Assembly: GCA_050123335.1 (NCBI GenBank) | Contig: JASFHH010000003.1 | Location: 6,615-70,614 of the forward strand | Length of the DNA: 64,000 bases | Source of the DNA: Gammaproteobacteria bacterium | GTDB lineage: Bacteria; Pseudomonadota; Gammaproteobacteria; UBA12402 | Reading direction: 5' to 3' | In this document: piece after piece, positions 7,122 through 52,995 of the stretch | How the letters are laid out: each line of letters starts with the position of its first letter | Position numbering within the stretch: position 1 is the first letter of the stretch | Position numbers and translations under genes: made by a program | Notes under the pieces: generated by a model | Told to the model about the DNA's origin: nothing | What the model saw: the letters and a program-made list of their open reading frames with translations, nothing else | Database searches by the model: none

Positions 7122-7247
7122 GAAGATGCGAGATTTATGGGAAATTCTGATATTGAAGTTAAATTGAAACTCGCGATTTTACAAAAACAAACAGGTTGTA
7201 AAATCGCGAGTTCCAATTTGAACTGACAGTATAAATCTCGCATTTTC
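7122..7247. repeat. nested palindromic element, family D
   Basis: Outer inverted repeat GAAGATGCGAGATTTAT / ATAAATCTCGCATTTTC and inner inverted repeat AAACTCGCGATTTTACAA / TTGTAAAATCGCGAGTT. Related copies are at 961-1005 and 42745-43050. Confidence 0.55.
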
Positions 7248-8197: not shown

Positions 8198-10281
8198 TGA
8201 TAAAAAAAGATTTTTTATTTGAATTATTAACGGAAGAATTGCCGCCAAAAGATTTATATAAATTATCACAAGCGTTAGAGAACAACTTCATAGAAAATTT
8301 GGGTAAGAACAAGTTAAATTATGCTGAAATAAAATCTTTTGCAACGCCGCGGCGTTTAGCGGTTTTAATTAAAAAACTTGATGATGCACAGCCGCAGCAG
8401 ATGATTGAGCGGCGAGGTCCTGCAGTTTCTACTGCTTTTGATCAAAATGGCAAACCAACCAAAGCGTGCATTGGGTTTGCGCAATCTTGCGGAGTAACGC
8501 CACAGGAATTAACAGTGATTAAAACTGATAAAGGCGAATGGGTTGGTTTTAAAAAGGAGCAAGCAGGTAAAAGTATTTTTCAGATTATGCCTGAGATTGT
8601 TAAGCAGGCGTTAAAATCTTTGCCAATTAACAGGCCAATGCGTTGGGGTAATAGTGAAGTTGAATTTATTCGGCCGGTGCATTCTGTGATTTTGTTATTT
8701 GACAAAAAAATAATAGCAGCAGAAATTTTAGGTATTAAAGCCAGTAATACAACTTTAGGTCATCGGTTTTTATCTAAAGACAAAATAAAAATTAAGTATC
8801 CGCGTGATTATGAAAAAATACTGAAGAAGCATTTTGTAATTGCTGATTTTATTAAGCGCAAAGCAGATATTCAACGACAGGTTTTACATTTTGCAGATAA
8901 AGTTGGCGGCAAGGCTTTAATGGAAAATGATTTATTAAATGAAGTTACTGCATTAGTTGAGTGGCCAGTTGGTTTGTTAGCGAATTTTCCTGAGCATTTT
9001 TTACAAGTTCCAGCAGAAATTTTAATTTCTTCAATTTGTCAACATCAAAAATGTTTCCCAATAAAAGATGAAAATAATAAATTGCTGCCTAATTTTATTA
9101 CTATAAGTAACATCAAAAGCAAACGCCCCCATGTGGTAATTGCTGGAAATGAAAAAGTAATGAATGCGCGATTAAGTGATGCTGAATTTTTTTATCATAC
9201 GGATATTGCTCAATCATTGGTAAAGCGAGTTGATGTGTTAAAAAACATTATTTTTCAACAACAATTGGGAAGTTTGTATGATAAGACCAAGCGGCTGATG
9301 GTTTTGTCTGCTTGGATCGCAGAATTAATTGGAGCTGATCAACAACATGCGGAACGAGCTGCATATTTGTCTAAGACTGATTTGGTGACGGAGGTGGTTG
9401 GTGAGTTTCCAGAATTGCAGGGTGTTATGGGATATTATTATGCTTTGCATGATGGAGAACCAGAGCAAGTGGCGGTGGCAATTCGCGAACAATATATGCC
9501 TGAGCATGCCAATGCGTTGTTACCACAAACTTTAGTTGGTCAAGTGTTAGCATCGGCAGATCGTGTTGATACGCTGATTGGTATTTTTGGAATTAATAAA
9601 ATCCCAACTGGAGATAAAGATCCTTTTGCTTTGCGTCGCGCCGCTTCAGGTATTGTTAGGATAATTGTCGAAAATAAATTGCCGCTTAATTTGTGGTTTT
9701 TATTGGAAAAGTCTTTGGATCTGTATGGTGATTTAATTAAGCGTGATAATGTAGTCGAGCAGGCATTTCAATTTATTCAGGACAGATTGAAGTCTTATGT
9801 ATTAGAACATGGATTTTCTGCGCATGAATTTGCTGCAGTTGCTGCAAGGAATGTTCATGAGACATATGATTTTTACTTAAGATTATTGGCGCTTAAAAAA
9901 TTTCTTGCAATGCCAGAGGCTGCGAGTCTAGCGGCAGCAAATAAAAGAGTTAGCAAATTGTTAGCTAAAGAAGCACAACAATTAATTGCAGGTCATGTAT
10001 TGCAGCAAGAGTTATTGACAGAAGATGATGAAATCAAATTAGCGCAGTTGATTGCTGAAAAACGTGAACAGACTCAGCAATTAGCTTTATCGCAAGATTA
10101 TGTTGCATTGTTGCAAGATTTGGCTGAACTGCAGCAGCCAATCGATAATTTTTTTGATCATGTAATGGTGATGGTTGAAGATAAAAACGTTTGTGCGAAT
10201 CGTCTATTGTTATTAGCTAGGTTGCGTGAGTTATTTTTGCAAGTGGCTGATATTTCATTAATTCCTGGGTCAGCGACATGA
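8197..10281 (+). CDS. glyS: glycine--tRNA ligase beta subunit
   Basis: 694 aa. ATGA overlap with glyQ. N-terminus [18 protein letters not shown] is typical of GlyS. Confidence 0.92.
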   Translation: MIKKDFLFELLTEELPPKDLYKLSQALENNFIENLGKNKLNYAEIKSFATPRRLAVLIKKLDDAQPQQMIERRGPAVSTAFDQNGKPTKACIGFAQSCGVTPQELTVIKTDKGEWVGFKKEQAGKSIFQIMPEIVKQALKSLPINRPMRWGNSEVEFIRPVHSVILLFDKKIIAAEILGIKASNTTLGHRFLSKDKIKIKYPRDYEKILKKHFVIADFIKRKADIQRQVLHFADKVGGKALMENDLLNEVTALVEWPVGLLANFPEHFLQVPAEILISSICQHQKCFPIKDENNKLLPNFITISNIKSKRPHVVIAGNEKVMNARLSDAEFFYHTDIAQSLVKRVDVLKNIIFQQQLGSLYDKTKRLMVLSAWIAELIGADQQHAERAAYLSKTDLVTEVVGEFPELQGVMGYYYALHDGEPEQVAVAIREQYMPEHANALLPQTLVGQVLASADRVDTLIGIFGINKIPTGDKDPFALRRAASGIVRIIVENKLPLNLWFLLEKSLDLYGDLIKRDNVVEQAFQFIQDRLKSYVLEHGFSAHEFAAVAARNVHETYDFYLRLLALKKFLAMPEAASLAAANKRVSKLLAKEAQQLIAGHVLQQELLTEDDEIKLAQLIAEKREQTQQLALSQDYVALLQDLAELQQPIDNFFDHVMVMVEDKNVCANRLLLLARLRELFLQVADISLIPGSAT

Positions 10282-12919: not shown

Positions 12920-14482
12920 ATGCGATCTAAATTTAAACGAATTTTATCTACGGGTATAGTTGCAGCATTTTGCGTAAGTTGTGTAAGTGGTTGTGCCAAC
13001 CAAATACAATTAGCCAAAGAAGCTGATGCAGCCAGTCAGCAGGCACAAGAGAGTATTAATGCTAATTTAGGTGAAATGCAAAATGTGCCAAAACCAGTAC
13101 ATCCTGGTGCAGTATTTAATGTCAAAAATAAAAGTTATGTTGATTTGAAACCAATCAGAATTCCTGCGAAGTGGAAAACTAAGCAGGTAGATATTTATGC
13201 TTCTGATCAGTCAGTTGCAGCAATTGTTGCAGAGATGACTAAAGGCATGGATGTAACTAATATTTTTGAGCCGGAGGTGCGTAATCAATCCATAAGTGTT
13301 GCATATCATGGTAATTTGTATGATGGCTTAAAGCAAATAGCAAGAGATAACAATATTGATTTAAATATTAGTGGTAATGTTAATCATCCAGTTTTTAATT
13401 GGTCGAAATATGAAACACGTACTTTTCAAATAGCATTTTTACCTGGTAATACTAGTTTTGGTATTGGTAATTATTCCAAAGATGGTGGTTCTTCTTCTTC
13501 AGATAGTTCTGATGATTCTGGGAAAACTGCTATATCCAATGGCAGCAACAGTGGTGCTTCTTTGTCTGGGTCGTCATTAAGTGTGTGGAAAGATTTGACC
13601 AGCTCAGTTAAAGGCATGTTATCTCCTCATGGTAAATTATCAGTTAGCCAGGCTTCAAGTTCGATTACGGTTATTGATACACCATATGTAGTTAATAAAA
13701 TTGCTAAGTATATTGATAATTACAATGGTATTTTATCAAAACGTGTTGCAATTAAAGTTAAAATTTTAGAAGTTCAATTAGATAATAATCACGCAAACGG
13801 TATTGATTGGAATGCGGTTTATTCAAGTTTTGGTGCAAAATTCAAGCTTAATGGAGCTTTTGGTAAAAGCGTTGCTAGTAATTTTGCTAAAGCTGTGTCT
13901 TCAGGTATAGGCATTGATGTTGGAAGAGGTCCCTGGAAAGATACCAGTGTCATGATTCAAGCCTTAGATCAGCAAGGTAAAACTACTGTAGTTAATGAGC
14001 CAACCGTAGTGAGTTTAAATAACCAGCCGAATACGATTAGCGTTGGTGAAAATCAAGCTTATGTTAAAAAAACAGATGTTACTTTGGATACGCAAACTCA
14101 TACAATGAGTACAGCATATACACCAGGTAATATAAAAACCGGTCTTGATTTAACTATCATTCCGCATATTCAGGATAATAAAATTTATTTATCTTTGAAT
14201 GCAATTTTATCTACTTTGCAAAGCATTAAAACATTTGGTGGTGATGGTACAGATCAAGATAAAAATTTATCACAAGTGCAATTACCGCAAACAGAAGATC
14301 GAGTGTTTAACCAGCGTATTATGTCACGTAGTGGGCATATGATTGTTTTGAGTGGATTTAAAGTTAAACAAAACTCATCTCAGGAAAATAAAAATTTTGG
14401 CACTAATTTGTTGGGAGGTGATTATGGATTATCTTCAAACGTAGAGCTAGTAGTTTTAATTCAGCCAACTTTAGTGAAATAG
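12920..14482 (+). CDS. lipoprotein secretin (type IVb pilus PilN/BfpB/TcpC-like)
   Basis: Lipobox SGC|ANQ after the signal peptide and a Ser-rich linker (GGSSSSDSSDDSG). The C-terminal secretin-domain pattern is VVNEPTVVSLNNQPNTISVGENQAY ... MSRSGHMIVLSGF. Confidence 0.65.
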   Translation: MRSKFKRILSTGIVAAFCVSCVSGCANQIQLAKEADAASQQAQESINANLGEMQNVPKPVHPGAVFNVKNKSYVDLKPIRIPAKWKTKQVDIYASDQSVAAIVAEMTKGMDVTNIFEPEVRNQSISVAYHGNLYDGLKQIARDNNIDLNISGNVNHPVFNWSKYETRTFQIAFLPGNTSFGIGNYSKDGGSSSSDSSDDSGKTAISNGSNSGASLSGSSLSVWKDLTSSVKGMLSPHGKLSVSQASSSITVIDTPYVVNKIAKYIDNYNGILSKRVAIKVKILEVQLDNNHANGIDWNAVYSSFGAKFKLNGAFGKSVASNFAKAVSSGIGIDVGRGPWKDTSVMIQALDQQGKTTVVNEPTVVSLNNQPNTISVGENQAYVKKTDVTLDTQTHTMSTAYTPGNIKTGLDLTIIPHIQDNKIYLSLNAILSTLQSIKTFGGDGTDQDKNLSQVQLPQTEDRVFNQRIMSRSGHMIVLSGFKVKQNSSQENKNFGTNLLGGDYGLSSNVELVVLIQPTLVK

Positions 14483-15655: not shown

Positions 15656-16384
15656 GTGAATAAATCTAATCGAAAACCAATGGTTAACAAAAAGTTAGCA
15701 ATTTTTAGTGTAATATTTTTAGTGATATGTGCTGGTGCATGGATCATGTTGGTGGGCAACCCTTTTGATAGTATATCTACTAGCAGTGTTTCATCGACAA
15801 AAGCACAAGTAGCTGTGTCAGCAAAACCTGCTCCTCGAGAGATAGATGTGCCAAAGTTAGAGGTAGATAATGCAGCTAAACCAGATTCTAATTTAATTAA
15901 GTTTAAATCATATTTGCAGCATGTAATTACCAATGATAAGAAACTTTCTAAACAGGATAAAAATGCTTATTTAGCTTATGTAGAGCAAATCAATAAATTT
16001 GTTGAACAAAAAACGCAAGCTGCAAAAGATATTCAACAATTGCAGCAATTAAGTGAGGAATATCGCATTAAGACATTACAAAGTCAGGTTTTAGAGCAGG
16101 AAAGCAAAATTTCTGCAGCCAAAGCTTCAATTCAAAGTGATCAATTCAAAGCTGCACAAGCATTAGGTTTGCCTGCGCAACAAATGGTGCAACAAGTTGA
16201 TCATGTTACCATGATTTATGGCAATGGTGGGAAATTGCAAGCTGATGTAGTAATTGATGGTGTTAAATATACCGGAAAAAGCATAGGGGATGCAATTAAT
16301 AATTATAAAATAGCAGGAATTCAATCTAATCAAGTTACATTATTAGATTCGAAGATACATAAAACAAAAATATTAGATTTGTAA
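15656..16384 (+). CDS. periplasmic coiled-coil pilus assembly protein (PilP-like)
   Basis: N-terminal TM anchor and Gln-rich coiled-coil; its position in the cluster is the main evidence. Confidence 0.35.
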   Translation: MNKSNRKPMVNKKLAIFSVIFLVICAGAWIMLVGNPFDSISTSSVSSTKAQVAVSAKPAPREIDVPKLEVDNAAKPDSNLIKFKSYLQHVITNDKKLSKQDKNAYLAYVEQINKFVEQKTQAAKDIQQLQQLSEEYRIKTLQSQVLEQESKISAAKASIQSDQFKAAQALGLPAQQMVQQVDHVTMIYGNGGKLQADVVIDGVKYTGKSIGDAINNYKIAGIQSNQVTLLDSKIHKTKILDL

Positions 16385-16398
16385 AAAAAATATTTGGT

Positions 16399-16518
16399 GG
16401 CGATTATCAGAGATTTTGGGTGGCTTTTTTCGACGACTAGCTCCCATGGATGGAAGAGCGGGAGGCACATGGATGTGCCAGGGAGGAGAAAAAAGACACA
16501 CAAAAACTCATAATCGCC
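16399..16518. repeat. palindromic element family B (copy B1, inverted orientation) inside the pilus operon
   Basis: Core TTTTTTCGACGACTAGCTCCCATGGATGGAAGAGCGGGAGGCACATGGATGTGCCAGGGAGGAGAAAAAAG flanked by the outer inverted repeat GGCGATTAT... Sits between the PilP-like gene and the ATPase gene. Confidence 0.6.
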
Positions 16519-16555
16519 AGAAATAAAAAGTTTGTAAATTATAAGGTAAAAATTT

Positions 16556-18217
16556 ATGGCAACAAACAGTTACGAACAATTACAAAAATATGCCGAGTTG
16601 CTGAATGCTAAGGTACTGTTGGATGCTTCAGAAATTAATGCTCAGGTAGATAAAAATATTAGTTTACATTGGGCAGCTAATAAAGAAGATATTGTAGTAT
16701 TGGTTAATGGCGATATTTTGATTTCTGATCCAGCGTCACCTAGTCTTTATGAATGCAAAACTTATTTTAAAACTCATGGCTTAACTCAAGGCGAGGTATA
16801 CTTTACTACTTTAGCGGTAGTTAAAGAATTGCGTGAGCGCGCCGCAGATGTGAGTGCAGTTGTTGCAAACGAAGACAAAACTATTGGTGAAAAACAATTG
16901 ATGGATTTAATTCGTTTGGCAATCGAACAAAATGCTTCAGATATTCACATGTTTATTGGTAGAACCAGATGTAAAATTCATTTTCGTGTAGATGGTTTGT
17001 TGATGCCGATTACTGATTGGCCGGCTGATCAAGGCATTAGAATACATAATGTAGCGTATAACTTTGTAGCGCAAGATAAGTCAGATAACTTTAATCGTAC
17101 TAAGCCGCAGGATACTTCTTTTACTTTGCATCTACAAGGTAAAGGTGATGTGCGAATTCGTTCGTCAAATATTCCAACTAATAATGGCGGTTGTAATATT
17201 GTTTATCGTATCCTTTCGATTGGTCAAAAAGATGTGGTACCAATTGAAAATCTTGGTTATACCAAAGCGCAAGAAAAACTATTAGAAGAAATTAAACATT
17301 TATCCAGCGGATTGGTGCTGTTTTGTGGTGAAACCGGTAGTGGTAAAACCACATCATTAGCTAGTGTGCTGGCTGGAATTGATCCCAGAAGAAAAGTTTA
17401 CAGCATTGAGGATCCAGTAGAAAAATTAGTGCCGAATGTTATTCAAATTCCGGTAGATACAAAAGACAAGTCAAAAAGTTTTGCTTATTATTTACGGGCA
17501 TTATTGCGTCAAGATCCGAATGTTATCATGGTGGGAGAAATTCGTGATTTGGAAACCGCAAAAGTAGCGATGCAAAGTGCATTGACTGGCCACTTGATTT
17601 TATCAACTTTGCATACGCGTTACGCGGTGGATTCGGTTTTGCGTTTAAATGAATTTGGTATGTCACCAAAAATTTTAGCCACACCAAATTTATTAAAATT
17701 GATTGTAGCACAGGAATTGCATCCAAAATTATGTCCATTATGTCGCAGACCTTTGATGTCTGAAGAAAAACAACAGTTATTAGGTTTGTATAAGAAGAGT
17801 GAGATGGAAGAGATGTTTACCGTGCCATTAAAAAAAGAAATTAATCCGGATTGTCCAGTTTGTGGCGGTAAAGGTATTGCCGGACGTAAAGTATATGCAG
17901 AGATGGTTAAAGTTGATCAGCGAGCACATGATTTTATTGCGGATGTAGACATTAAAGGATGGCGTGCGCATTTGCAAGAATGTGGTTTTGTAACTTTAAA
18001 TGAAAGGGTGCGAAATGCGATTAAGCGTGGTGAAATTGATGCTTTAGGAGTTACGCGTGATCCGGTTGAAGTAGCTGCTTATTCTTATCGCGAACAATTA
18101 CAAGTTGATCCAAGTTTTAGTTCGGTAGACCGAAAGGTTAAGTTTTTTAATGCACAAAATAATTCGCAAGAAAAAATAAATAGCCGATTAAATTCGGCCA
18201 GTATATTACGTAGGTAA
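16556..18217 (+). CDS. GspE/PilB-family secretion ATPase
   Basis: Walker A GETGSGKTT, Walker B VIMVGEIRD, and the tetracysteine CPLCRRP ... CPVCGG that is typical of assembly ATPases and absent from PilT. Confidence 0.9.
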   Translation: MATNSYEQLQKYAELLNAKVLLDASEINAQVDKNISLHWAANKEDIVVLVNGDILISDPASPSLYECKTYFKTHGLTQGEVYFTTLAVVKELRERAADVSAVVANEDKTIGEKQLMDLIRLAIEQNASDIHMFIGRTRCKIHFRVDGLLMPITDWPADQGIRIHNVAYNFVAQDKSDNFNRTKPQDTSFTLHLQGKGDVRIRSSNIPTNNGGCNIVYRILSIGQKDVVPIENLGYTKAQEKLLEEIKHLSSGLVLFCGETGSGKTTSLASVLAGIDPRRKVYSIEDPVEKLVPNVIQIPVDTKDKSKSFAYYLRALLRQDPNVIMVGEIRDLETAKVAMQSALTGHLILSTLHTRYAVDSVLRLNEFGMSPKILATPNLLKLIVAQELHPKLCPLCRRPLMSEEKQQLLGLYKKSEMEEMFTVPLKKEINPDCPVCGGKGIAGRKVYAEMVKVDQRAHDFIADVDIKGWRAHLQECGFVTLNERVRNAIKRGEIDALGVTRDPVEVAAYSYREQLQVDPSFSSVDRKVKFFNAQNNSQEKINSRLNSASILRR

Positions 18218-18221
18218 ATAA

Positions 18222-19265
18222 ATGAGTTTGTTTGAACGTATACAATTATTTTTATTTAAGAAGCAGTTTAACAATACTAAACGGCAGGAATTGTTAATTC
18301 AATTATCTTTTTTGTTGAAAGCAAACGTTCCGCCGTCAGATGCTTTGTACCACATGCAGCAGATTTACTTTGATAACAAAAATCTTTTGATGCATGCGGT
18401 AGTAACAGATATGTTAGATAATATTAGAGCTGGTAAAAAAATCGGTGACAATATGACGGATTGGTTTCCGTATGAAGTATGTCGCGTGTTATCGATTTCA
18501 GAAGAAAGAGGTTTTTTGCTGCAAGGTGTAGAGAATCTAATTAAATACTTTGATACAGGTCGTAACGCTTTAAAAGCACTTACCGGAATTATACCAGGCT
18601 TGGCTTATTTTATTGTGATTTTAGTGTTTATTGCGTTTACTGGTGCGAAGTTATTGCCAAGTTTAGGAACGATGGTAAAAGATTGGCCGGCAATTTCAAT
18701 GGCATTAAATAAATCTGGTATGTTTTTGTATCACAATTATTACTTCATATTGGCAATTGTGGTTTTGTTAATTGTTTGGGTGATTATCGCACTGCGAGAT
18801 TATTCTGGAAAAATTTATCAACTAATTGCTAAACCATTAGTGCCTACTTATAAATTGCAAGCATCGCTTTTATTATTTAAATCATTATCAATGTTAACAG
18901 GTAATGGTGTTGCGGTATCAGATGCCATTAAAATGTTGTTGCTAAATCGTACGCATGGTTTTGTTTATCGGCATCTTTCGGAGATGTTTTATCGGGTTAG
19001 ACGTGGTGAAAATATAGGAAATATGCTTGATACGGGTATTTTTACGCGTAGTCAGATAGCGCACCTTAAAGTAATTAGCCGTTATTGTTCGGAGGCTGAG
19101 TACTCAAAGGTATTTGCGCTTATGGGAGAGCAAACTAGCCACGATCTTAGCAGGCGGATGAAAATATTTTCAAAAATTATGAATTTTATTTTCATTGCTT
19201 TAACTGCCGTTGGGGTAGTTTGGGTCTACGGTGCATATGCACTGTTAGTATCTTCAATAACTTAG
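18222..19265 (+). CDS. GspF/PilC-family inner-membrane platform protein
   Basis: 347 aa polytopic membrane protein immediately after the ATPase. Its size fits BfpE/PilR-type platforms. Confidence 0.7.
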   Translation: MSLFERIQLFLFKKQFNNTKRQELLIQLSFLLKANVPPSDALYHMQQIYFDNKNLLMHAVVTDMLDNIRAGKKIGDNMTDWFPYEVCRVLSISEERGFLLQGVENLIKYFDTGRNALKALTGIIPGLAYFIVILVFIAFTGAKLLPSLGTMVKDWPAISMALNKSGMFLYHNYYFILAIVVLLIVWVIIALRDYSGKIYQLIAKPLVPTYKLQASLLLFKSLSMLTGNGVAVSDAIKMLLLNRTHGFVYRHLSEMFYRVRRGENIGNMLDTGIFTRSQIAHLKVISRYCSEAEYSKVFALMGEQTSHDLSRRMKIFSKIMNFIFIALTAVGVVWVYGAYALLVSSIT

Positions 19266-19280: not shown

Positions 19281-19751
19281 ATGTTAAATAACTTTCTAAA
19301 AAAACGTAAGTCTGAACAAGGCTTTACTTTAGTTGAGTTCTTGGTTGTGTTAGGACTTATTTTTGTGTTGGTTGCAGTTATTGCAATGGCTGCATATAAA
19401 TCAACTCAGCGTACTCGTATTTCAAAGGTTAAAAGTGAAGTTATGAGTATCGTTGCTGCTGCACAGAATTGGGCTTCTAATAAACCAACCATGTTTAAAA
19501 ACATGACGTTTAAGGATTTAGAGAACTCAGATCTTGTAAGTAAAGATTTGGTTAATAGTAATTACCAGGATCCGTGGGGTGGAGTTTATGAACTAACACC
19601 AGCAGGAAATGGTGGTTCTTTTACAGTTACTATTAATGGAGTGCCTAATAAGTCAATAGCACAAGACTTAGCTGATAACTTGCGTCCAGCGAGTTTAAAT
19701 CAGGATAGTTCTGTAGCTGCTGATGACAACGTAAAGGTAACTTTCAGATAA
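19281..19751 (+). CDS. prepilin-type major (pseudo)pilin
   Basis: Leader MLNNFLKKRKSEQG, then mature FTLVEFLVVLGLIFVLVAVIAMAAY with Glu5. GGGGAGGAG ribosome-binding site. First pilin after the platform gene. Confidence 0.75.
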   Translation: MLNNFLKKRKSEQGFTLVEFLVVLGLIFVLVAVIAMAAYKSTQRTRISKVKSEVMSIVAAAQNWASNKPTMFKNMTFKDLENSDLVSKDLVNSNYQDPWGGVYELTPAGNGGSFTVTINGVPNKSIAQDLADNLRPASLNQDSSVAADDNVKVTFR

Positions 19752-19757
19752 TGTATA

Positions 19758-19824
19758 GGGGCCGGGTCTTTACTTATTACAAGTGCCCTGTCAGTTGCTT
19801 TGTAATAAGTAAAGACCCGGCCCC
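19758..19824. repeat. palindromic element family A (copy A1) acting as a hairpin terminator after the major pilin gene
   Basis: GGGGCCGGGTCTTTACTTATTACAAGTGC-loop-GCTTTGTAATAAGTAAAGACCCGGCCCC. Starts 7 nt after the pilin stop and ends 4 nt before the next ATG. Confidence 0.65.
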
Positions 19825-19827
19825 ATA

Positions 19828-20313
19828 ATGGAGCTAAACGTGAATAAAATGAAAAAGCACAAAGGTTTTACTTTAGTTGAATTGTTATTAGTGATGGCGA
19901 TTTGTGCGTCGTTGACCGCAGTGGTTTATACTGCTTGGCATAATATTCAAGTAAGGTTAGATCTGCAAAAAGTTCAATCGCAGGTAAATATAATAGTTGA
20001 TGTTGCCAGAGCTTGGCGTAATGCAAAAACTTCATATCAAGGGATTTCTATGAGTCCTGATGATAAAGATTCTCTTTGTAATGATAATCTATTGCCAAAA
20101 GATATGTGTGTTGCGGGTTTTGTAAATCCATGGGGTGGTCAGTATCGTGTTAGTGTGTCTGCAAAATATGGTGATAATAATTTTGATGTTACTTTAACTG
20201 ACATTACTAACTCAGAAATACGAAATGCGATCAAATTAATTTTATTAAAAAGCACTTTAGGACAAGACAGTATTCAAATAGAGAGAGACAAAATAATTGC
20301 GACGTTTAATTAA
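19828..20313 (+). CDS. prepilin-type minor pilin
   Basis: The leader ends in G, followed by FTLVELLLVMAICASL with Glu5. The alternative start at 19849 gives a short MKKHKG leader. Confidence 0.7.
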   Translation: MELNVNKMKKHKGFTLVELLLVMAICASLTAVVYTAWHNIQVRLDLQKVQSQVNIIVDVARAWRNAKTSYQGISMSPDDKDSLCNDNLLPKDMCVAGFVNPWGGQYRVSVSAKYGDNNFDVTLTDITNSEIRNAIKLILLKSTLGQDSIQIERDKIIATFN

Positions 20314-20818
20314 ACACAAAATAAAATATGAAGCAGCATTTACGATGATTGAAATGTTAATATCGCTGGCTGCTATTGGGATTTTATTTGCTATATTAAT
20401 AGTGGCTGCGCACCAAGCTTTTAACGTGCCGGCAGAACGGTCGAGTTTGATGAGTTGTAAAAATAATTTAATACAGGCGTTAAATGCTTATTATTTGAAT
20501 AATTATCATCAGTTGCACCATACAACTCAGCCGGTAGCAATTGATAATTTGGTTGCGCAACATTATTTGGATAAAGATAGTTTGTATAATATTGGACAGT
20601 TTAAATATACGGCTGGTGTGCGAGTAGTGGATACTCACGATCGGTTAGAGTTAGCTATTACAACTGATGATGCTAACAGTTTGGTATGGATGAAGCCGGA
20701 TAAAATAGATGGCAATAGGGCAATTTGGTATGTAGTACCGCAGTATGGTGATACGGCTAATTCGATAAGATATAACGCGGTGCAATTGGCTCGGGAGAAT
20801 GATAATGACAAAATGTAA
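20297..20818 (+). CDS. prepilin-type minor pilin
   Basis: ...KYEAA|FTMIEMLISLAAIGILFAIL has Ala rather than Gly at -1 and keeps Glu5. Overlaps the previous gene. Confidence 0.6.
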   Translation: MRRLIKHKIKYEAAFTMIEMLISLAAIGILFAILIVAAHQAFNVPAERSSLMSCKNNLIQALNAYYLNNYHQLHHTTQPVAIDNLVAQHYLDKDSLYNIGQFKYTAGVRVVDTHDRLELAITTDDANSLVWMKPDKIDGNRAIWYVVPQYGDTANSIRYNAVQLARENDNDKM

Positions 20819-21969: not shown

Positions 21970-22626
21970 TTAACCTAATCCGAATATTGTAAGAATTAAT
22001 CTTTGTAGTAGTACAATCGGTACCCATAAAAGTAAACGTAAAATGCCGGTGACTAATAACAATAACAAAATAAAAAATCCATATGGTGCAATTCGATCAT
22101 ATTTATAAGCTAATTTTGGCGGCAAAATGGCTGCAACTACGCGGCTGCCGTCAAGCGGCGGAATAGGGATTAAATTTAAGATCATTAATACTAAATTGAT
22201 CAGGATTCCTGCTCGACCCATTAATACGATTGGTAAGGCAAATTGTAGGCCGTGTCCCATTAGAATGCTACCTATTTTCGTAATTGCCGCCCAGATGAGT
22301 GCCATAATGATATTTGAAATTGGTCCAGCAAGAGCTACAAATGCCATATCTCTTCTGGGTTTCTTTAGATTATTTGGGTTCACCGGGACTGGTTTAGCCC
22401 AACCGAAGATGATAGGACTGAAAAGCAGTAAAATCAGTGGAATGAGAATCGTGCCAATCATATCAATATGCTTGAGCGGATTTAAAGTTAATCGACCAAG
22501 CATTAGTGCAGTTTTGTCACCTAGTTTTAATGCCATCCAGCCATGCGCTACTTCATGTACAGTAATAGCGAATAAAATAGGTGGAGCCCATACAATAATT
22601 TTTTGAATAATATTTAATTGCCACAT
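21970..22626 (-). CDS. site-2 protease family zinc metalloprotease (peptidase M50)
   Basis: HEVAHGWMA HExxH motif in a TM segment plus the LNLIPIPPLDGSR LDG motif; polytopic. Confidence 0.75.
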   Translation of the reverse strand: MWQLNIIQKIIVWAPPILFAITVHEVAHGWMALKLGDKTALMLGRLTLNPLKHIDMIGTILIPLILLLFSPIIFGWAKPVPVNPNNLKKPRRDMAFVALAGPISNIIMALIWAAITKIGSILMGHGLQFALPIVLMGRAGILINLVLMILNLIPIPPLDGSRVVAAILPPKLAYKYDRIAPYGFFILLLLLVTGILRLLLWVPIVLLQRLILTIFGLG

Positions 22627-22676: not shown

Positions 22677-22737
22677 GGGGCCGGGTCTTTACTTATTACA
22701 AGTGCGATAGCTTTGTAATTAGTAAAGACCCGGTCCC
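22677..22737. repeat. palindromic element family A (copy A2)
   Basis: GGGGCCGGGTCTTTACTTATTACAAGTGC...GTAATTAGTAAAGACCCGGTCCC, followed by the associated ATGTAAAGCTCACGACCCG segment. Confidence 0.65.
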
Positions 22738-22839
22738 ATAAAAATTATGTAAAGCTCACGACCCGCTTGACTTCTGTCATACAACAAGTGAAGATGTGAG
22801 ATATTATACTGATAATATAACATTTATGGGGTGTAAATT

Positions 22840-23220
22840 ATGTACAAAAAGTTTATGTGGATATTGGTAATATTAGTTTTAATTCCATTGACATCATCTG
22901 CGATTTGGCAAATTGCTGATCCAGCTCATGGAACTGGACGTCGTTATGAGCATGGTGTTGATTATCCGCAGCAATATGTTAATGGCGCTATTATTTCATT
23001 TAAATTACGCAAGGGTTTGCTTAAAGAGAATGTGTTTCGTATAGCTTGCAAATATCGTTGGAAAGTTAGATGGCTTGCGCCAAATAAATATTATGTAACA
23101 CTTGCTACCAAGATAGTTGGACCAACTTTTCCGATTGTAATGAATGGACTGTTGTCACATTATCCGCTACGTGCAACTTATGATATAAAATATAAGCGTA
23201 TGAGGGTATATAAACGCTAA
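22840..23220 (+). CDS. small secreted hypothetical protein
   Basis: Signal-peptide-like MYKKFMWILVILVLIPLTSSA; 126 aa. Confidence 0.35.
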   Translation: MYKKFMWILVILVLIPLTSSAIWQIADPAHGTGRRYEHGVDYPQQYVNGAIISFKLRKGLLKENVFRIACKYRWKVRWLAPNKYYVTLATKIVGPTFPIVMNGLLSHYPLRATYDIKYKRMRVYKR

Positions 23221-23416
23221 CTCTTGTTTGCAGCAACACCGCCGCCCAGATACCAGGAATTATGTGCTTGTTGCTGTGATTTTTTTGGTAAGTATAAAGG
23301 GCCGCTTTGTCCACAGCCATTTAGTACTAACAAGAATGCAAAAATACTTCCGATAAATATTATTTGTTTTATGCTCTTTTTCATGCTGTAATTATCAAAT
23401 TAATTTTATGTGGCTT

Positions 23417-23523
23417 ATAAGGTTTTGGGTTGATTTTTTCTCCTCCCTGGTACGTCCATGTACCTCCCGCGTTTCCATCCATGGACGCTAGTCGTCGAAA
23501 AATTCAACCCAAAACCTTATAAT
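23417..23523. repeat. palindromic element family B (copy B2)
   Basis: Outer inverted repeat TTATAAGGTTTTGGGTTGA / TCAACCCAAAACCTTATAA around the core TTTTTTCTCCTCCCTGGTACGTCCATGTACCTCCCGCGTTTCCATCCATGGACGCTAGTCGTCGAAAAA. Confidence 0.65.
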
Positions 23524-27279: not shown

Positions 27280-27299
27280 AATTTAATTTTGCTTAGGTA

Positions 27300-27410
27300 A
27301 TCATGATATTCTAGGTTGCTTTTTTTTCCTCCCTGGTACATCCATGTACCTCCCGCGCTTCCATCCATGGGCGCTAGTCGTCAAAAAAAGCAACCTAAAA
27401 TATCATTAAT
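27300..27410. repeat. palindromic element family B (copy B3)
   Basis: Core ...TTTTTTTTCCTCCCTGGTACATCCATGTACCTCCCGCGCTTCCATCCATGGGCGCTAGTCGTCAAAAAAAG with outer inverted repeat GGTTGC.../...GCAACC. Lies between rsmB and fmt. Confidence 0.65.
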
Positions 27411-28347
27411 TAAACTTCTTATGTTTTTCAAAAAAATCTAATTTGCTATTTAATATTTCAGCAATGGTTAATGCTTTCTTGCCGGGAAATTGCATTTTTA
27501 AAATGCGCAACATGCCATCGCCGGTTGCTACATCAATTCCTTTTTTATCTAATTTAACAATTTCACCTGGTTTTTTATCGCATGTTTCAGTTAATGGCGA
27601 TGCTTGCCAAATACGAATAATTTGGTCGCCAATTTGTGTATAAGAAATTGGCCATGGATTGAAAGCGCGAATTTCGCGATCTAATGTTATCGCAGATTTA
27701 TGCCAATCAATTTTGGCCTCTTCTTTAGTGATTTTTTTTGCGTAGCATGCTTTCTTTTCATTTTGTTTGGTTGGAGTAATTTCGTGTATTTTATCCAAAA
27801 CATTTAATAAGGCGTCAATGCCAAGTAACGCCAGTTCTTCTAGTAAACTTTTGGTGGTATCAGTTGGTTTAATTAAAAACTCTTTTTGCAAAAAAACCGG
27901 TCCAGTATCTAAGCCTTCATCCATTTGCATAATACTAACCCCGGTAATTTCATCACCAGCTAAAATTGCCCGTTGAATAGGAGATGCTCCACGCCATCTT
28001 GGCAATAAAGAAGGGTGAACATTAACACAACCGTAGTGGGGCAAAGATAAAATTTCTTTTGGAATCAACAAACCACAAGCGACATCAATAATAATATCAG
28101 CATGCAAATCTTTAATAGTTTTTTGTGCGGCAGCATCGCGTAAGGTTTTTGGTTGATAAATTGGAATTTTGTGAATTAAACTTAGTTGTTTAACTGGATT
28201 AATTTGTAGTTTGCGTCCACGACCAGCAGGTTTGTCTGGTTGAGTTATTACCGCACAGATGTCATATTTTGCGTTTAATAAACTTTGCAAAAATTTGGCG
28301 GCAAATTCTGGAGTGCCAGCAAAAATTATTTTTAAAGAATCAGGCAT
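27406..28347 (-). CDS. fmt: methionyl-tRNA formyltransferase
   Basis: LKIIFAGTPEFAAKFLQSL N-terminus and formyltransferase fold. Confidence 0.92.
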   Translation of the reverse strand: MPDSLKIIFAGTPEFAAKFLQSLLNAKYDICAVITQPDKPAGRGRKLQINPVKQLSLIHKIPIYQPKTLRDAAAQKTIKDLHADIIIDVACGLLIPKEILSLPHYGCVNVHPSLLPRWRGASPIQRAILAGDEITGVSIMQMDEGLDTGPVFLQKEFLIKPTDTTKSLLEELALLGIDALLNVLDKIHEITPTKQNEKKACYAKKITKEEAKIDWHKSAITLDREIRAFNPWPISYTQIGDQIIRIWQASPLTETCDKKPGEIVKLDKKGIDVATGDGMLRILKMQFPGKKALTIAEILNSKLDFFEKHKKFN

Positions 28348-28862: not shown

Positions 28863-28938
28863 AAATTATAATTATAGCGGAAAGAGTATATTTTTACATA
28901 CATTTTTATGCTTTATTCTGTTACACTGAATGTTAAGT

Positions 28939-29050
28939 TTTTAAGAGATTTTGGGTTGTTTTTTTCTCCTCCCTGGTACATCCATGTACCTCCCGCGTCT
29001 TCATCCATGGACGCTAGTCGTCGAAAAAACAACCCAAAATCTCTTAAAAT
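28939..29050. repeat. palindromic element family B (copy B4)
   Basis: Outer inverted repeat TTTTAAGAGATTTTGGGTTG / CAACCCAAAATCTCTTAAAA around the B core; lies upstream of def. Confidence 0.65.
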
Positions 29051-29082
29051 CGTCTAAATAAAAAACATTTATAGAGGTAAAA

Positions 29083-31525: not shown

Positions 31526-32005
31526 ATGATCAGGTTGTCTTTTAAACAAGTATATTTCGTTAGTTTTTTAGTAGCATGCATGTTTATCGGTTTTACGATA
31601 TTTATTCAGAGTTGGCAGGTGTTATTACCTTGTCCGTTGTTGCATATTGAGAGAATTATTATGGGGTTATTGGCGTTAATTTTTTTGATTATTGCATTGT
31701 ATAATCACACCATATTAAGTAGAAAAATTTGGAGTTGGTCGGCGTGCGCGATTAGTTTGTTGGGTGCGCTGGTTGCGGGAAGGCATGTTTGGCTGCAGGA
31801 GTTTTCTACGGGAGAAGTTAGTCTTAATGGTTTTGCGGAGCAGTCGCCACAATCTTCGTTTGTACATTATTTACATCAGGCAGTTAACTCATCATTATGT
31901 GTCCAAGTACAGTGGTCAATTTTAGGTATTAGCTTGGCTGGCTGGACTTTGATTTTATTTATTTTGTTTGCGGGATTGTGTGTTTGGCAGCGTAATCGGA
32001 AATAA
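31526..32005 (+). CDS. DsbB-like four-TM membrane protein with degenerate first Cys pair
   Basis: Four TM segments, about 160 aa. LLPCPLLHIER aligns with E. coli DsbB KPCVLCIYER, but the second Cys is Leu (codon TTG). The second periplasmic loop has a single Cys. Confidence 0.45.
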   Translation: MIRLSFKQVYFVSFLVACMFIGFTIFIQSWQVLLPCPLLHIERIIMGLLALIFLIIALYNHTILSRKIWSWSACAISLLGALVAGRHVWLQEFSTGEVSLNGFAEQSPQSSFVHYLHQAVNSSLCVQVQWSILGISLAGWTLILFILFAGLCVWQRNRK

Positions 32006-32048
32006 TGCCACGCAGAAGGCGATTTAAATCTCCTTCTGCGTGGCATTA
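32004..32048 (+). terminator. rho-independent-type hairpin
   Basis: 16-bp stem AATGCCACGCAGAAGG-loop-CCTTCTGCGTGGCATT overlapping the dsbB-like stop codon. Confidence 0.6.
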
Positions 32049-32446
32049 TTTAATATTAAGAATGGAACTGCAAATATTCCAAAATGAAAGAGGCGACTAT
32101 ACAGGCCGCCTCTTATCTATTCGAGCTATAGCCCGAATCAACTTCCTTGTCTTTCAATCTCCATGTTTATTGCGTCCCTGCAACAATACATTTTCAGGAG
32201 ATCGTTCTAAAAAAGTAGCAAATTGAGTGATTAATGCAATACCTTATTTTTTGTCAATTGCTGATTTGGGCACGATCCTAATAATTTTTTTCACAAATAT
32301 TGATTATAAATCATTAAGTTGCAAAAACTTTTTAATCTATAACCGTAAATTTAAGCAAATATTCCACTTTTCGCTGACTAAACTTTCAGAGATTTCTTAC
32401 AAATAATATATGGGGGTTCGCATCTTCACTCATTACAAAAAAAGTA

Positions 32447-32537
32447 GTCGGGTCGCGAGCTTTACATAATTTTTATGGGGCCGGGTCTTTACTAATTACA
32501 AAGCTACCGCACTTGTAATTAGTAAAGACCCGGCCCC
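32447..32537. repeat. palindromic element family A (copy A3) with its associated segment
   Basis: GTCGGGTCGCGAGCTTTACAT followed by GGGGCCGGGTCTTTACTAATTACAAAGC...GTAATTAGTAAAGACCCGGCCCC. Ends at the CaCA antiporter stop on the minus strand. Confidence 0.65.
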
Positions 32538-32538
32538 A

Positions 32539-33561
32539 TTATATACATAAAATGATCAAATATGCGATATATGCAGCTAACAAGATGCTGCCTTTTGTTT
32601 TAGTGAGTACTTTTTTGTCTTTGCGGCCAAATGCAAAAAAGAACAATAGGACGGTGATGCCAAACATCATAGTAAAATCGATGAGCAGGTGTGGCGCTAC
32701 ATGGATCTGACAAATGATTGCAGGTAGGCCAATTACGGCAAGCAGATTAAAAATATTGGAGCCGATTACATTACCGATAATGATGTCGTATTCTTTTTTT
32801 CTGGCACAAGCCAGTGAGGTTGCCAGTTCTGGGAGGCTGGTGCCTAAAGCAACGATGGTTAAACCAATGATTAAGTCGCTAATATTAAATTGGTGCGCAA
32901 TATGTATCGCACTTTTTACAATCAAATTTGAGCTGATTGGAAGAAGGATTAAGCCAAATGTTATTAGCAAAATGGCTTTCTTAAGTGGTACTTTAGCTTC
33001 GATTTCTTTGCGGTATTCAGTTTCCAAGACGTCTTTGCGCAAAAATTTCTTTCTTCTTTTGCCTTCCTGAATTAGCCAGAATACTACCAAAATAGCTCCA
33101 ATCAGCAATAATATTCCATCGCCTCGGCCAAGCTTGCCGCTTAACATGAATGCGCCGACTAACAGCATAGAAATGAACAATAGCGGAAATTCTTTACGCA
33201 GGGTGGTAGATCGTACTCTTAATGGAACAATTAATGCGGTGATCCCTAAAACTAGGCCTATATTGGCTATGTTTGAACCCATCACATTACCAATTGCTAT
33301 ATTCGGATTACCATGTATTGCAGCCATTACTGAGATTACCATTTCAGGAATTGAAGTACCTAGAGCAATAATAGTTAGTCCAATCAAGCGTGGCGATAAG
33401 CCAAATTTTCTAGCTAAAGTCGCTGCGCCGGAAACCGCGCTATTAGCAGCCCAGGCCAACAAGAAAAATCCTGCTAGTAATAAAATCAATGATGTTAATA
33501 GCCCAAGCTGCATGATAAAAAACCTTGTATTAAGGGTTCGTTTTAATAAGGTGTCTGACAC
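32539..33561 (-). CDS. CaCA-family Na+/Ca2+ (K+-dependent-type) antiporter, YrbG-like
   Basis: Two alpha-repeat motifs: GTSIPEMVISVMAAIHG and GTSLPELATSLACARKKEYDIIIGNVIGSNIFNLL. Confidence 0.85.
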   Translation of the reverse strand: MSDTLLKRTLNTRFFIMQLGLLTSLILLLAGFFLLAWAANSAVSGAATLARKFGLSPRLIGLTIIALGTSIPEMVISVMAAIHGNPNIAIGNVMGSNIANIGLVLGITALIVPLRVRSTTLRKEFPLLFISMLLVGAFMLSGKLGRGDGILLLIGAILVVFWLIQEGKRRKKFLRKDVLETEYRKEIEAKVPLKKAILLITFGLILLPISSNLIVKSAIHIAHQFNISDLIIGLTIVALGTSLPELATSLACARKKEYDIIIGNVIGSNIFNLLAVIGLPAIICQIHVAPHLLIDFTMMFGITVLLFFFAFGRKDKKVLTKTKGSILLAAYIAYLIILCI

Positions 33562-33961: not shown

Positions 33962-36900
33962 TTATAGTTCTATCCACAAGGGAATTGCTGGGTAATACAA
34001 TCCACAAGATATTTTTTCAGAGTATAATTGCATCAGTAATTGTTGATAATTAGTTAATTGTTGCTGATGCTTTATTCTTTCTTGAGCGATAAATTTTTCG
34101 ATATTTTTTCCGCTGAAAGCTGTGGTTTTGTAATCGATAATCCAGCGTTTATTTTGATCAATAAAGGTGCGATCGATTCTGTAGTGTTTTAATTGATTGT
34201 TTTGTGTAGTAGATATTGCAAATTCATTGCGATGATCCTGGTGATTTTTTAAGATCCATTGCGCGCGCGGGTCAGTTAAAATATTTTTTAAGACGAGTTC
34301 AATTTGTTTTTTAGCATAGTCTAAATTATCAGATAATACACCAAGTTGAATCAGCATATTTTGCCAGTATGGCAAAGAATTTTGTATGCGTTTTTCTGGC
34401 CATTTATCGATGCCCTCAATTGATATTTGCTGCAAGATACGATGAATGACCGTACCAAGGTGAGTGTTGGTATTGTTTGGGGGTGCAAGTGACTTTGTTC
34501 CTTCGAATCTGTCATCCCGGACCCAGTCAGTTGATCCGGGATCCATGTTCCCAAATCTGTCATCCCGCGACCCAGCCTGAAGCCTGTCCTGCGGCGCAGC
34601 CAGTTGACCGGAGGAATCGCGGGATCCAGGTTGTTCGGCACGCACAATCCGTCTTAATTGAGATAAGGTTTTGTGTGCAGCATTAGTTTGTTGTCTTTCT
34701 TCTGTGCTTTTGAATTCTTCTTTAACTTGCGGCCAAATTAAATTTAAAAAACTTCCTTTTTTTGGTTCATTGTTCGGTCCTGCGGTACCAAATAAATGCA
34801 ACTGGTGTTTGGCGCGAGTCATGGCAACATAAAGTAATCGCTGAGTTTCAAAGTTATTTTTGCGTTTTTCGTGTGTTTCAAGATAATTATAAATTTTATC
34901 TTTTTGCTCTGCATAATTTTTTATTGGCGCTAAAATTAACTCATCGCCGAATTCTGCTCGAGGTTGATCGGTCCATAATAAAAGCTGTTTTTCTGTTTGC
35001 CGTGCCTGGCGATGCAAACCTGGTAAAATTACCGTGTCAAATTCAAGGCCTTTAGCTTTATGAATTGTCATAATTTGTAGGGTATCATCGTTGGTTGCGG
35101 CAGGAGAGGTAAATAATGTTTCAATTTTTTCTTCGAGTTGGGTGAAATTTTTAATATCACCACCGGCGTCGAAAGTTTCTAATAATTTAAAATAAGTTTT
35201 TGCGTCTTCGATATCAGAACTTTTATTTAAACAAGCGCCCCCATTTATTGATAACCAAGTGTCAAAGACAAAATTGCGCAAATTTTTACGGCCGCGATTT
35301 TGTAATGCCTGATCGAGCCGTTCACATAAAAATAATAAATTTTGTTGTGTATTTACATCAAGTTTTTGTAGGGTGTTTGGATCGTTAATACTTTGCCATA
35401 TGGTTTCGTGCTGATTGGCAATGCAATGTAAATCTTTTAAACTCAAGCCACACCATGGTGCGCGTAAGATTGCAAGCCAGGCAATTTTATCTGCAAAATT
35501 TAGTAATGCGCGAGTTAAAGCCAATAAATCCTGAATTATCGGGTTGGTATTTAGTTTATCGATCTCAATTGCCTGATAAGTTAAGTTACAGTTTTGTAGC
35601 GCAGGTAAAATGTCAGTTAAATGAGAACGTGATCTGACTAAGATGGCGATTTTTTGTTGTGTGTTTTGTTGCTTAATCGATTTAATTAATTTAACTATTT
35701 CATTAACATCATTTGATGTGTGTATTTTGACACAGGTATCAGGAGTGTTTTCGTGAAAACTTTTAGTTTGACTGTATTTTACTGCGCCGTCAGTTAGATT
35801 TTCTACTTGCGGGAAGATATCGGTAAAAACCTGATTAAACCAATTTATTAATTTTTTGTTGGAGCGAAAGTTTGTTGATAAAGTTATTGGGTTTAATTTA
35901 ATATTTCCAATTCCATATTGACGTGCGCGAATAAATAATCCGACGCGGGCTTCGCGAAAACGATAAATTGATTGCATCGGGTCGCCAACAATAAATAATG
36001 TGCGCCCATCATTTTCTTCCCAGCCGGCGGTTAGTAATTCTAATAATTCGATCTGGGAGATAGAAGTGTCTTGAAACTCATCTACCAGAATATGTTTGAT
36101 CTTATAGTCTAAAAATAATGCCAAGTCAGTTGGATCGTCGGTTGTGCCTAATACGTTTTTAGCTGCTTGCGCTACTTCAATAAAATCTATTTCGCCAATT
36201 TCCTGGAAAACTAATTTTAGAAACGCAGCAGCGCGTGGTAATAAAATTGTTAAAGATTCTAAAGTTTGCCATTGTTGTTCTGAATATTTAGTTGGTGGAA
36301 TAATTTTTGCTTCAGTTAATGCTTCGCGGAAATCATCATGCGCAGAAAGTTGCTGTAATAAATCCAGTACATGTTGTTTCATCGGTTTATCGTTTGCTGG
36401 AAAACCATTTCTCTTATCGATAGTTTTGCGCCAGTCGTTTTTATCGGTTAAAAATATTTTAGCAATGAATTGCCAATAATTTATTTCTTCTGTTGTGTTA
36501 TCCCGCGGCAAGCCTGTCCTGCGGCCCAGCCAGTTGACCGGAGGAACCGCGGGATCCATGTTTGTTTTTGCAAACTCAGCTAAAACTTTTATTTCCTGTG
36601 CCAAATTTTTTGGCAAGATATTATTTAATTTTTCCAGGCAATCATAAGAAATATTTCGCAGGCTTTGTTCTAAATCTTCACGTGAAATTTTTTGACCATG
36701 TACATGTGGTAACCATTGGTCACGTTTAGCCAACATTGCGGCAATTAGGTTTTGTGTTTTACTAAAATCATTGTCAAGATGTAGCAATAATTGTTTGATG
36801 TGGAAAGCGCATGCTTCATTAGAATAAATTTGCATCAATAATTCATATGCGGCTTTTAGATATAATGGTTTTGCATCATCAGTGATTTTGGTAATCGTCC

Positions 36901-52805: not shown

Positions 52806-52995
52806 TTGTCATCCCGCGACCCAGTTTGTTGATCGCGGGATCTAGGCTGTTTGGTAGTTTTCCTGGATACCGCGGGTGAGCCGGTGTTAGTTTAGGCAAA
52901 GCATGCTTTGCCCCGGCGAACGCGAGACATGGATGTCGAGCTGGCAAAATTACCATGGATGGTTGCTTGGAACAATCTAAGCCGCGGTATGACAA
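52806..52995. repeat. family-C palindromic element plus an adjoining composite palindromic region
   Basis: GTCATCCCGCGACCCAGTTTGTTGATCGCGGGATC, then TACCGCGGG...GCAAAGCATGCTTTGC...CCGCGGTA with CATGGATG motifs. The two small ORFs listed here translate repeat DNA. Confidence 0.55.

Follow-up and report, generated by a model that had tools for sequence, protein, structure and literature searches.

A lineage-specific family of dispersed hairpin repeats and the probable replacement of a pilin operon terminator

The window, which is the whole 64-kb stretch of DNA analysed here, contains four copies (A1 to A4) of a dispersed palindromic repeat, termed family A. Family A probably represents a lineage-specific set of non-coding hairpin repeats of the REPIN/MITE kind, one of which took the place of the ancestral terminator downstream of the major pilin gene. 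The compared sequences show the repeat family with its structure and presence/absence polymorphism, as well as the loss of that terminator, and an effect on RNA and a manner of spread may be deduced from them. The comparison with sibling loci points to a repeat that turns over and that displaced the terminator, rather than to one that was recruited and kept as a terminator.

Family A and the pil cluster in the window

The window is chromosomal, and its open reading frames encode GroES/GroEL, GlyQS, AddAB-like nucleases, MlaFEDCB, and CysZ. The ATPase and CysZ have identical counterparts in proteins MGD9107747.1 and MGD9107788.1 of an 80.8-kb MAG contig from an uncultured gammaproteobacterium. 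The best named relatives of its GroEL are at 84% identity. The gene order of the pil cluster (Table 1) is that of type IVb pili. Among the genes of the operon, the first prepilin differs most between siblings (63% amino acid identity, against 94% for the platform protein), which fits a surface-exposed protein and makes it the probable major pilin. For the second pilin gene, GTG 19840 or ATG 19849 is a likelier start than ATG 19828. Sibling L111 has CTG at the position of ATG 19849, so the start is probably GTG 19840.

The arm GGGGCCGGGTCTTTAC has eight matches with three mismatches or fewer in the window, and these form four inverted pairs. Shuffling gives an expectation of 0.10 matches, and 0 of 100 shuffles reach eight. 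The pairs correspond to the hairpins previously noticed at 19758, 22677, 32477, and, as a variant, 59578, of which the fourth is now placed one base earlier. In the window, a covariance model of the family matches these four copies alone, at 82–100 bits.

A1 separates the major pilin-like gene from the second pilin-like gene and is not flanked by half-arms. It begins 6 nt past the pilin stop codon and ends 5 nt short of the GGAG of the next gene, in keeping with the earlier remark that it nearly fills this gap. A2 lies in a divergent promoter region, between an M50-peptidase-like ORF (21970–22626, minus strand) and an ORF on the plus strand (22840–23220), and the earlier statement that all copies are at gene 3′ ends is therefore wrong for this copy. 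A3 begins 1 nt past the stop codon (32539–32541) of a minus-strand Na/Ca-exchanger gene, and its loop orientation is sense to that gene. The stop codon of mlaB (STAS), at 59645–59647, overlaps the last base of the A4 stem.

Table 1. Positions of family-A elements and pil cluster features in the window.
Feature	Position	Strand	Remarks
A1, Z-subfamily hairpin	19758–19824	+	26-bp stem, 18-nt loop GTGCCCTGTCAGTTGCTT; covariance model 99.6 bits
A2, Z-subfamily hairpin	22677–22737	+	covariance model 87.5 bits
Remnant right half of older nested element beside A2	22747–22799	+	Y' half-arm 22747–22765, spacer, X' half-arm 22778–22799
A3, Z-subfamily hairpin	32477–32537	-	covariance model 89.8 bits
Half-arms adjoining A3	32412–32467	-	X arm 32412–32438, Y arm 32449–32467 (read on + strand)
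A4, Y-like subfamily hairpin, between mlaB and cysZ	59577–59645	-	covariance model 82.5 bits
X half-arm of A4 composite	59528–59553	-	immediately upstream of cysZ ribosome-binding site GGAGAA (59517–59522, -)
Secretin gene, pil cluster	12920–14482		
T2SSE-family ATPase gene, pil cluster	16556–18217		
T2SSF platform protein gene, pil cluster	18222–19265		
PilS-like prepilin, probable major pilin	19281–19751	+	TAA stop 19749–19751
Second PilS-like prepilin	19828/19840–20313	+	
GGAG ribosome-binding site of second PilS-like pilin gene	19830–19833	+	
Pilin-like ORF	20297–20818		N-terminal methylation motif

The family is larger than the four hairpins first described, and includes half-arms by A2, A3, and A4. 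All three copies have beside them a diverged half-arm, (A/G)AGTGAAG(A/G)TG(C/T)GA. A 19-nt segment, ATGTAAAGCTC(A/G)CGACCCG, occurs at 22747–22765 (A2) and, reverse-complemented, at 32449–32467 (A3). This is the associated segment already noticed at these two copies, which is confirmed here as part of a longer composite of 89 nt. A2 and A3 are inverted copies of that composite at 96% identity, and the associated segment is a half-arm of an older subfamily. The remnant beside A2 is near-identical to the right half of an X-Y-Y'-X' element of sibling L115 (16264–16418).

The copies contain 46–48% G+C against about 35% in the window background. The description of the repeats as GC-rich in AT-rich surroundings thus stands for the copies as a whole, but only the outer 11 bp of the stem are rich in G+C, and the inner stem is A+T-rich.

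Structure, folding, and covariation

The hairpins are 61–69 bp long, and stems of 25–26 bp are near-perfect in all seven complete copies (four in the window and three in L115). The arms comprise about 26 nt with the pattern GGGG-Y-CG...CTT-Y-AC...TTACA. The inner stem ATTACA / TGTAAT is kept across the seven copies and, together with the loop, is their most conserved part. The loop is asymmetric, TGCC-N-TGTTTGTTGC, with a length of 12–19 nt, and is shorter in A2 and A3. The outer stems vary between subfamilies, and both arms of each copy change together. Four subfamilies are distinguished: Z (A1–A3), Y (A4 and the L115 copy at the A2 site), X, and W. Solitary arms occur beside A2, A3, A4, and the L115 copies, and single, nested, and arrayed copies are all found.

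Over the four window copies, 100% of cells pair and 7 of 26 pairs are changed on both sides, as counted on a model-based alignment that is fitted to the structure and in which some changes are a 1-nt register shift in A4. This covariation is matched by 0 of 500 shuffles and by no slid register. A pair count based on MAFFT was dropped because A4 was out of register, and the recount on the model-based alignment is the one given here.

Folding energies had been suggested as a check in the preliminary description, and each window copy folds strongly. The minimum free energies of the hairpins alone as RNA are −43 to −49 kcal/mol. When flanks are included, z-scores range from −6 to −10, and none of 200 shuffles folds as stably. 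As single-stranded DNA, A1 and A4 reach −29 and −25 kcal/mol. The arms do not fold on their own: the four arm types as single-stranded DNA have minimum free energies of 0 to −0.1 kcal/mol, no better than shuffles.

Three further structural properties were considered and rejected. A strand-specific RNA structure, judged by G-U versus A-C asymmetry, would be suggested by A2, which prefers the plus strand (−42.8 versus −36.2 kcal/mol), but not by A4 or the L115 copies. A fixed orientation to transcription is true for the four window copies and is broken by the L115 hairpin at 13302–13374. A riboswitch-like switch with X' as alternative pairing partner is not indicated, as the perfect stem always dominates.

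The pilin junction in sibling loci

Five sibling loci were compared with the window at the A1, A2, and A4 sites. The closest is L115 (JGI 3300035137 / NCBI MAG), with 87–93% nucleotide identity to the window. The others are L114 (Logan SRR24270834, 82–90%), L116 (Logan SRR22388154, 81–87%), L111 (Logan SRR22388294, 84%), and L112 (Logan SRR15144438, 71–78%).

The pilin junction of L111 contains an 11-bp stem, TTCCTGCGGG-TTTTGTG-CCCGCAGGAA, followed by the T tract TCACTTTTTGGTTTT. The terminator scan calls this hairpin, and it is the sole terminator-like site in 1.2 kb. L112 has the L111 stem with another loop and one G-U pair. L116 also keeps the native L111-type terminator stem, after which about 140 nt of unrelated GC-rich hairpins are inserted. 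In the window, A1 is found at the slot of the sibling terminator, and the flanks are conserved, with TTCAGATAAT upstream and TAAACGTGAATAAA downstream. A terminator at such a position is reported for type IVb pilus operons after tcpA and after bfpA, favouring the upstream pilin (PMC5207764; PMC4810605). The earlier proposal that A1 fills an attenuator slot is borne out by this precedent and by the short GC-rich hairpins of L111, L112, and L116, of which that of L111 carries the T tract.

The junction of L115 has neither A1 nor the terminator, and the terminator scan lists no terminator-like site in it. It is filled by an inverted three-arm composite, with two solitary X-type arms and a complete hairpin (13302–13374) of another subfamily in the opposite orientation. 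Parsimony over the siblings makes the pilin terminator the ancestral state, with its loss placed in the lineage shared by the window and L115, and A1 now occupies its slot in the window. The content of the junction is not conserved, since even the closest sibling has a different, inverted multi-arm composite.

Two minor observations concern insertion at these points. In L116 (5811–5960), at least four unrelated GC-rich hairpins follow the native stem before the conserved GATTTGGAGTTTGAAATG, and structured insertions seem to concentrate at the pilin junction in several lineages. In L115, short CCCGACCCC and GACCCC fragments stand directly after complete hairpins (9975–9986 and 13375–13388). They look like the tips of earlier arms, which suggests repeated insertion and deletion at the same points.

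The A2 and A4 sites and turnover of the family

The A2 site is empty in L112 and L116. In L115 it is occupied by a complete nested palindrome, X - spacer - Y hairpin - spacer - X' (16264–16418), and the right half (Y', X') of such an element is what persists in the window beside A2, whose Z hairpin therefore replaced the left half of an older member. At the A4 site, the mlaB–cysZ gap of L114 is 3 nt and the A4 composite of about 135 nt is absent, which identifies the composite as an insertion. It provides a new stop codon for mlaB. Elsewhere, mlaB and cysZ overlap in a more distant contig, and are separated by a 171-nt gap in a contig at 95% CysZ identity.

The covariance model finds three further copies in 21.6 kb of L115, at 56–70 bits, and no copy in L111, L112, L113, L114, or L116. 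The orthologous sites are empty or otherwise filled in siblings, which supports the earlier suggestion of active spread. As far as the aligned loci go, family A is polymorphic between siblings and turns over.

The flanks of the copies are A+T-rich (TATA / ATWAT) and carry no consistent direct repeat that would represent a target-site duplication. Comparison of filled with empty sites shows small replacements instead of clean insertions. The three Z-type copies are nearly identical, and all of them are at sites with earlier family members. For A2 this is seen from L115, for A3 from the adjacent X and Y arms, and for A1 it is suggested by the L115 composite. Conversion between copies fits these pre-occupied sites at least as well as transposition, and the Z variant may spread by such conversion or by homing, rather than by random transposition.

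Terminator features and probable role in RNA

Whichever orientation is read, no U tract stands 3′ of the stem in any of the four copies, which rules out A1 as a canonical intrinsic terminator. A1 has CAUAAUGGAGCU as its tail, and the tails of A2, A3, and A4 are A-rich in the orientation defined by the loop. In A2–A4 a U-rich stretch precedes the stem on the other strand. The terminator scan at the A1 and A2 junctions lists the full palindrome at neither.

In a transcript of the operon, A1 would fold into an RNA stem of 26 bp that separates the two pilin cistrons. This stem would most plausibly block 3′-to-5′ exonucleases and/or be cut by RNase III, and would perhaps give some pausing or Rho-dependent attenuation. 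Any of these effects would give more message for the pilin than for the downstream pilin-like genes, as with REP and Correia elements. The REP325 element in yjdMN is a partial, partly Rho-dependent terminator and also stabilises the upstream mRNA against 3′ exonucleases (bioRxiv 10.64898/2026.03.23.713779). In Correia elements, the inverted repeats of 26 bp fold into hairpins in the mRNA, which are bound or cleaved by RNase III (PMC2649163). By analogy, A1 is most likely an mRNA 3′-end stabiliser, an RNase III site, or a weak attenuator. The loss of the U tract could equally mean that the attenuator function was simply lost.

Relation to known repeats

Family A resembles the REPINs in that two inverted conserved ends and a spacer form one hairpin of about 70 nt with two-sided compensatory changes (PMC3116915). 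Extragenic copies, clusters, and single leftover arms are also shared with REPINs (PMC3116915). REPs at operon junctions are partial terminators and mRNA stabilisers (bioRxiv 10.64898/2026.03.23.713779), which is a further likeness. In contrast, the REP unit is itself a short imperfect palindrome, whereas the arms of family A do not self-fold. Family A also lacks a consistent GTAG-type motif and sequence similarity to any described REP, and no RAYT gene is found in the DNA covered. Neither a transposase nor a RAYT gene occurs among the approximately 50 window ORFs scanned against Pfam. The copy density is 4 in the 64-kb window and 3 in 21.6 kb of L115.

The Correia (NEMIS) elements of Neisseria likewise have 26-bp inverted repeats, presence/absence differences between close relatives, and co-transcription within operons (PMC2649163). 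Their stem is an RNase III substrate and their ends can create promoter-like hexamers (PMC2649163). The right arm of A1 and its flank also give a sigma-70-like TTGTAA-18-CATAAT (19800–19829), and such matches are no commoner in the region than in shuffles. Correia elements differ in their length of 104–157 bp with a core, in an often present IHF site, and in their duplicated TA target. Family A is almost only stem and short loop, has no clear target duplication, and is unrelated in sequence.

As in MITEs, terminal inverted repeats are present in family A: the arms are 26 nt long, and the L115 element at 16264–16418 has outer X/X' and inner Y/Y' repeats. Presence/absence polymorphism is seen at A2 and A4, and the A1 slot holds the native terminator in L111, L112, and L116. 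A1 resembles the terminators of the tcpA and bfpA type in position, past the major pilin gene and ahead of the further pilin-like genes. It differs from them in its 26-bp stem (against 11 bp), in the lack of a U tract, and in belonging to a dispersed family instead of being specific to one locus.

No family-A copy has a match in Rfam, either at the gathering threshold or at E ≤ 1. By BLAST, plasmids and phages contain no match to the A3 composite, and plasmids none to the pil region. Metagenome and viral contigs contain none of the Z-type patterns of 21–25 nt, in a metagenome collection that evidently does not include the window's sample, JGI 3300042731. In genome contigs, a 16-mer of the arm, which is too short a pattern, has no more than isolated chance matches, all in unrelated taxa. 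The arm sequence was not found in the literature searched. Family A is a new lineage-specific family of a known repeat kind, and is not assigned to any named family.

Origin of the A1 junction and alternative explanations

Under the preferred reading, in which a family-A element displaced the terminator, the ancestor had a rho-independent terminator past the major pilin gene. A family-A element took this slot in the lineage of the window and L115, and in the window it is now a single Z-type hairpin. Between short intergenic junctions, copies would be spread or exchanged either through transposition or through conversion of one copy by another. The preliminary description instead suggested that A1 may be a co-opted regulatory terminator, and such a terminator, kept by selection and setting the major-to-minor pilin ratio, is unlikely. 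The element does lie in the ancestral terminator slot and spares both the stop codon and the downstream ribosome-binding site; T4b operons use terminators at the same position (PMC5207764; PMC4810605), and REPs can attenuate partly via Rho (bioRxiv 10.64898/2026.03.23.713779). These points are opposed by the lack of a U tract in either orientation and of a call by the terminator scan at A1, and by the different inverted composite of L115, which leaves the junction sequence without conservation. The family is also found in a promoter region (A2), away from gene 3′ ends, and at the mlaB–cysZ junction, which is empty in a sibling with 82–90% identity. A possible, if not the expected, alternative is a neutral selfish insertion, in which A1 destroyed the terminator, has no useful effect, and is tolerated since the stop codon and ribosome-binding site are spared. 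The pil junctions of the window and L115 hold several unrelated repeats that are absent from other siblings, such as the TwoAYGGAY-like repeat at 16411–16523 and the X-type hairpin at L115 9902–9974, and the hairpins of L116 directly past its native terminator stem are of the same bearing. A 26-bp stem in a polycistronic mRNA would, however, hardly be without effect on RNA decay or processing. Its pairing is also kept through two-sided changes, although a copying mechanism could do likewise.

A host function at the DNA level is very improbable. It would make the hairpin a site for a nucleoid protein, gyrase, or IHF, or a DNA-uptake sequence for the adjacent pilus. The conserved loop and inner stem with a co-varying outer stem would suit a protein recognition site, and A1 is part of a type IV pilus operon. 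In A3 the loop includes the Haemophilus uptake-sequence core, AAGTGCGGT. The 64 kb have a single occurrence of this motif, a number also reached by 24 of 100 shuffles, and the other copies carry different loop bases at its position. An uptake sequence (USS/DUS) was rejected on this ground, as AAGTGCGGT is at chance level and not over-represented. An assembly artefact or a local duplication is conceivable for a contig of a metagenome-assembled genome and is extremely improbable here. The preliminary description had named confinement to one region as an argument against its reading, but the copies span 40 kb in different gene contexts with intact flanking genes, and variants are present in a second genome, the independent L115 assembly from another sample (JGI 3300035137).

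A more specific form of the terminator replacement is that family A homes to existing hairpins, either terminators or older copies, and replaces them, with the loop and inner stem as the site for an enzyme acting on single-stranded DNA. Such homing is speculative and distinctly unlikely. It is hinted at by the position of all three Z-type copies where a hairpin or an older member stood, by the refilling of the pilin junction in at least three ways in five genomes, and by the differences between filled and empty sites, which are replacements and not simple insertions. If homing were true, the repeat would be a terminator-replacing element able to rewire attenuation within operons.

The junction offers a natural comparison, as one type IVb pilus operon junction has four fillings in closely related genomes. 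These comprise a canonical terminator, a terminator with other hairpins, a multi-arm composite, and a single 26-bp hairpin without a U tract. The set is usable for testing dispersed hairpins as stand-ins for terminators or attenuators that determine subunit ratios, and the conserved loop with the co-varying stem is a handle for finding the mobilising enzyme. The biology itself is unsurprising, since REP, REPIN, and Correia-type repeats are already known at operon junctions, where they alter termination and mRNA decay.

Other repeats and genes in the window

A second repeat family has copies of 107–113 nt with 81–84% identity at 16411–16523 (inverted), 23405–23517, 27293–27404, and 28933–29039. 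It matches the Rfam TwoAYGGAY RNA (RF01731) with 44.1 bits at 28930–29058 (minus strand), where the gathering score is 43, and with 31.4 bits at 27291–27419 (minus strand). The first of its copies is within the pil operon, between the PilP-like and ATPase genes. This junction is a gap of 13–14 nt in L111, L112, and L116, and contains a family-A X-type hairpin in L115 (9902–9974).

A third palindromic family, ACTCGCGATTTTACAA-loop-TTGTAAAATCGCGAGT, is found at 955–1005, 7169–7228, 42774–42833, and 42966–43010. It shares the inner-stem motif TTACAA/TTGTAA with family A, and the family-A model gives 30 bits at 7158–7222. GC-rich repeats of the form GTCATTCCGCGG...CCGCGGAATCCAG are present at 34580–34632, 36510–36562, 38645–38682, 60586–60623, and approximately 52807–52883. 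Two copies with 94% identity are inside the AddA-like ORF (33962–37357) and one is inside the AddB-like ORF, and these may resemble the palindromic elements of Rickettsia in being in-frame insertions. L114 lacks the copy at the mlaD/mlaC junction.

The ORF at 43118–44737 (minus strand) encodes an F-box and six RCC1 repeats, the latter by 171-nt tandem repeats. Eukaryote-like proteins of the F-box/RCC1 type are typical of intracellular bacteria. The gene is missing from the part of L114 that is syntenic here and does not appear among the listed genes of the P0241 contig.

Three other palindromes were observed. The palindrome at 62022–62091 has 31-nt arms with 97% complementarity across the mlaF stop and the mlaE start, and it reaches 43 bits with the family-A model on structure alone. 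Another, at 31993–32058, has 33-nt arms at the end of dsbB. The third, at 39776–39886, is upstream of the AddB-like gene and comprises 30-nt arms (97%) that are 51 nt apart.
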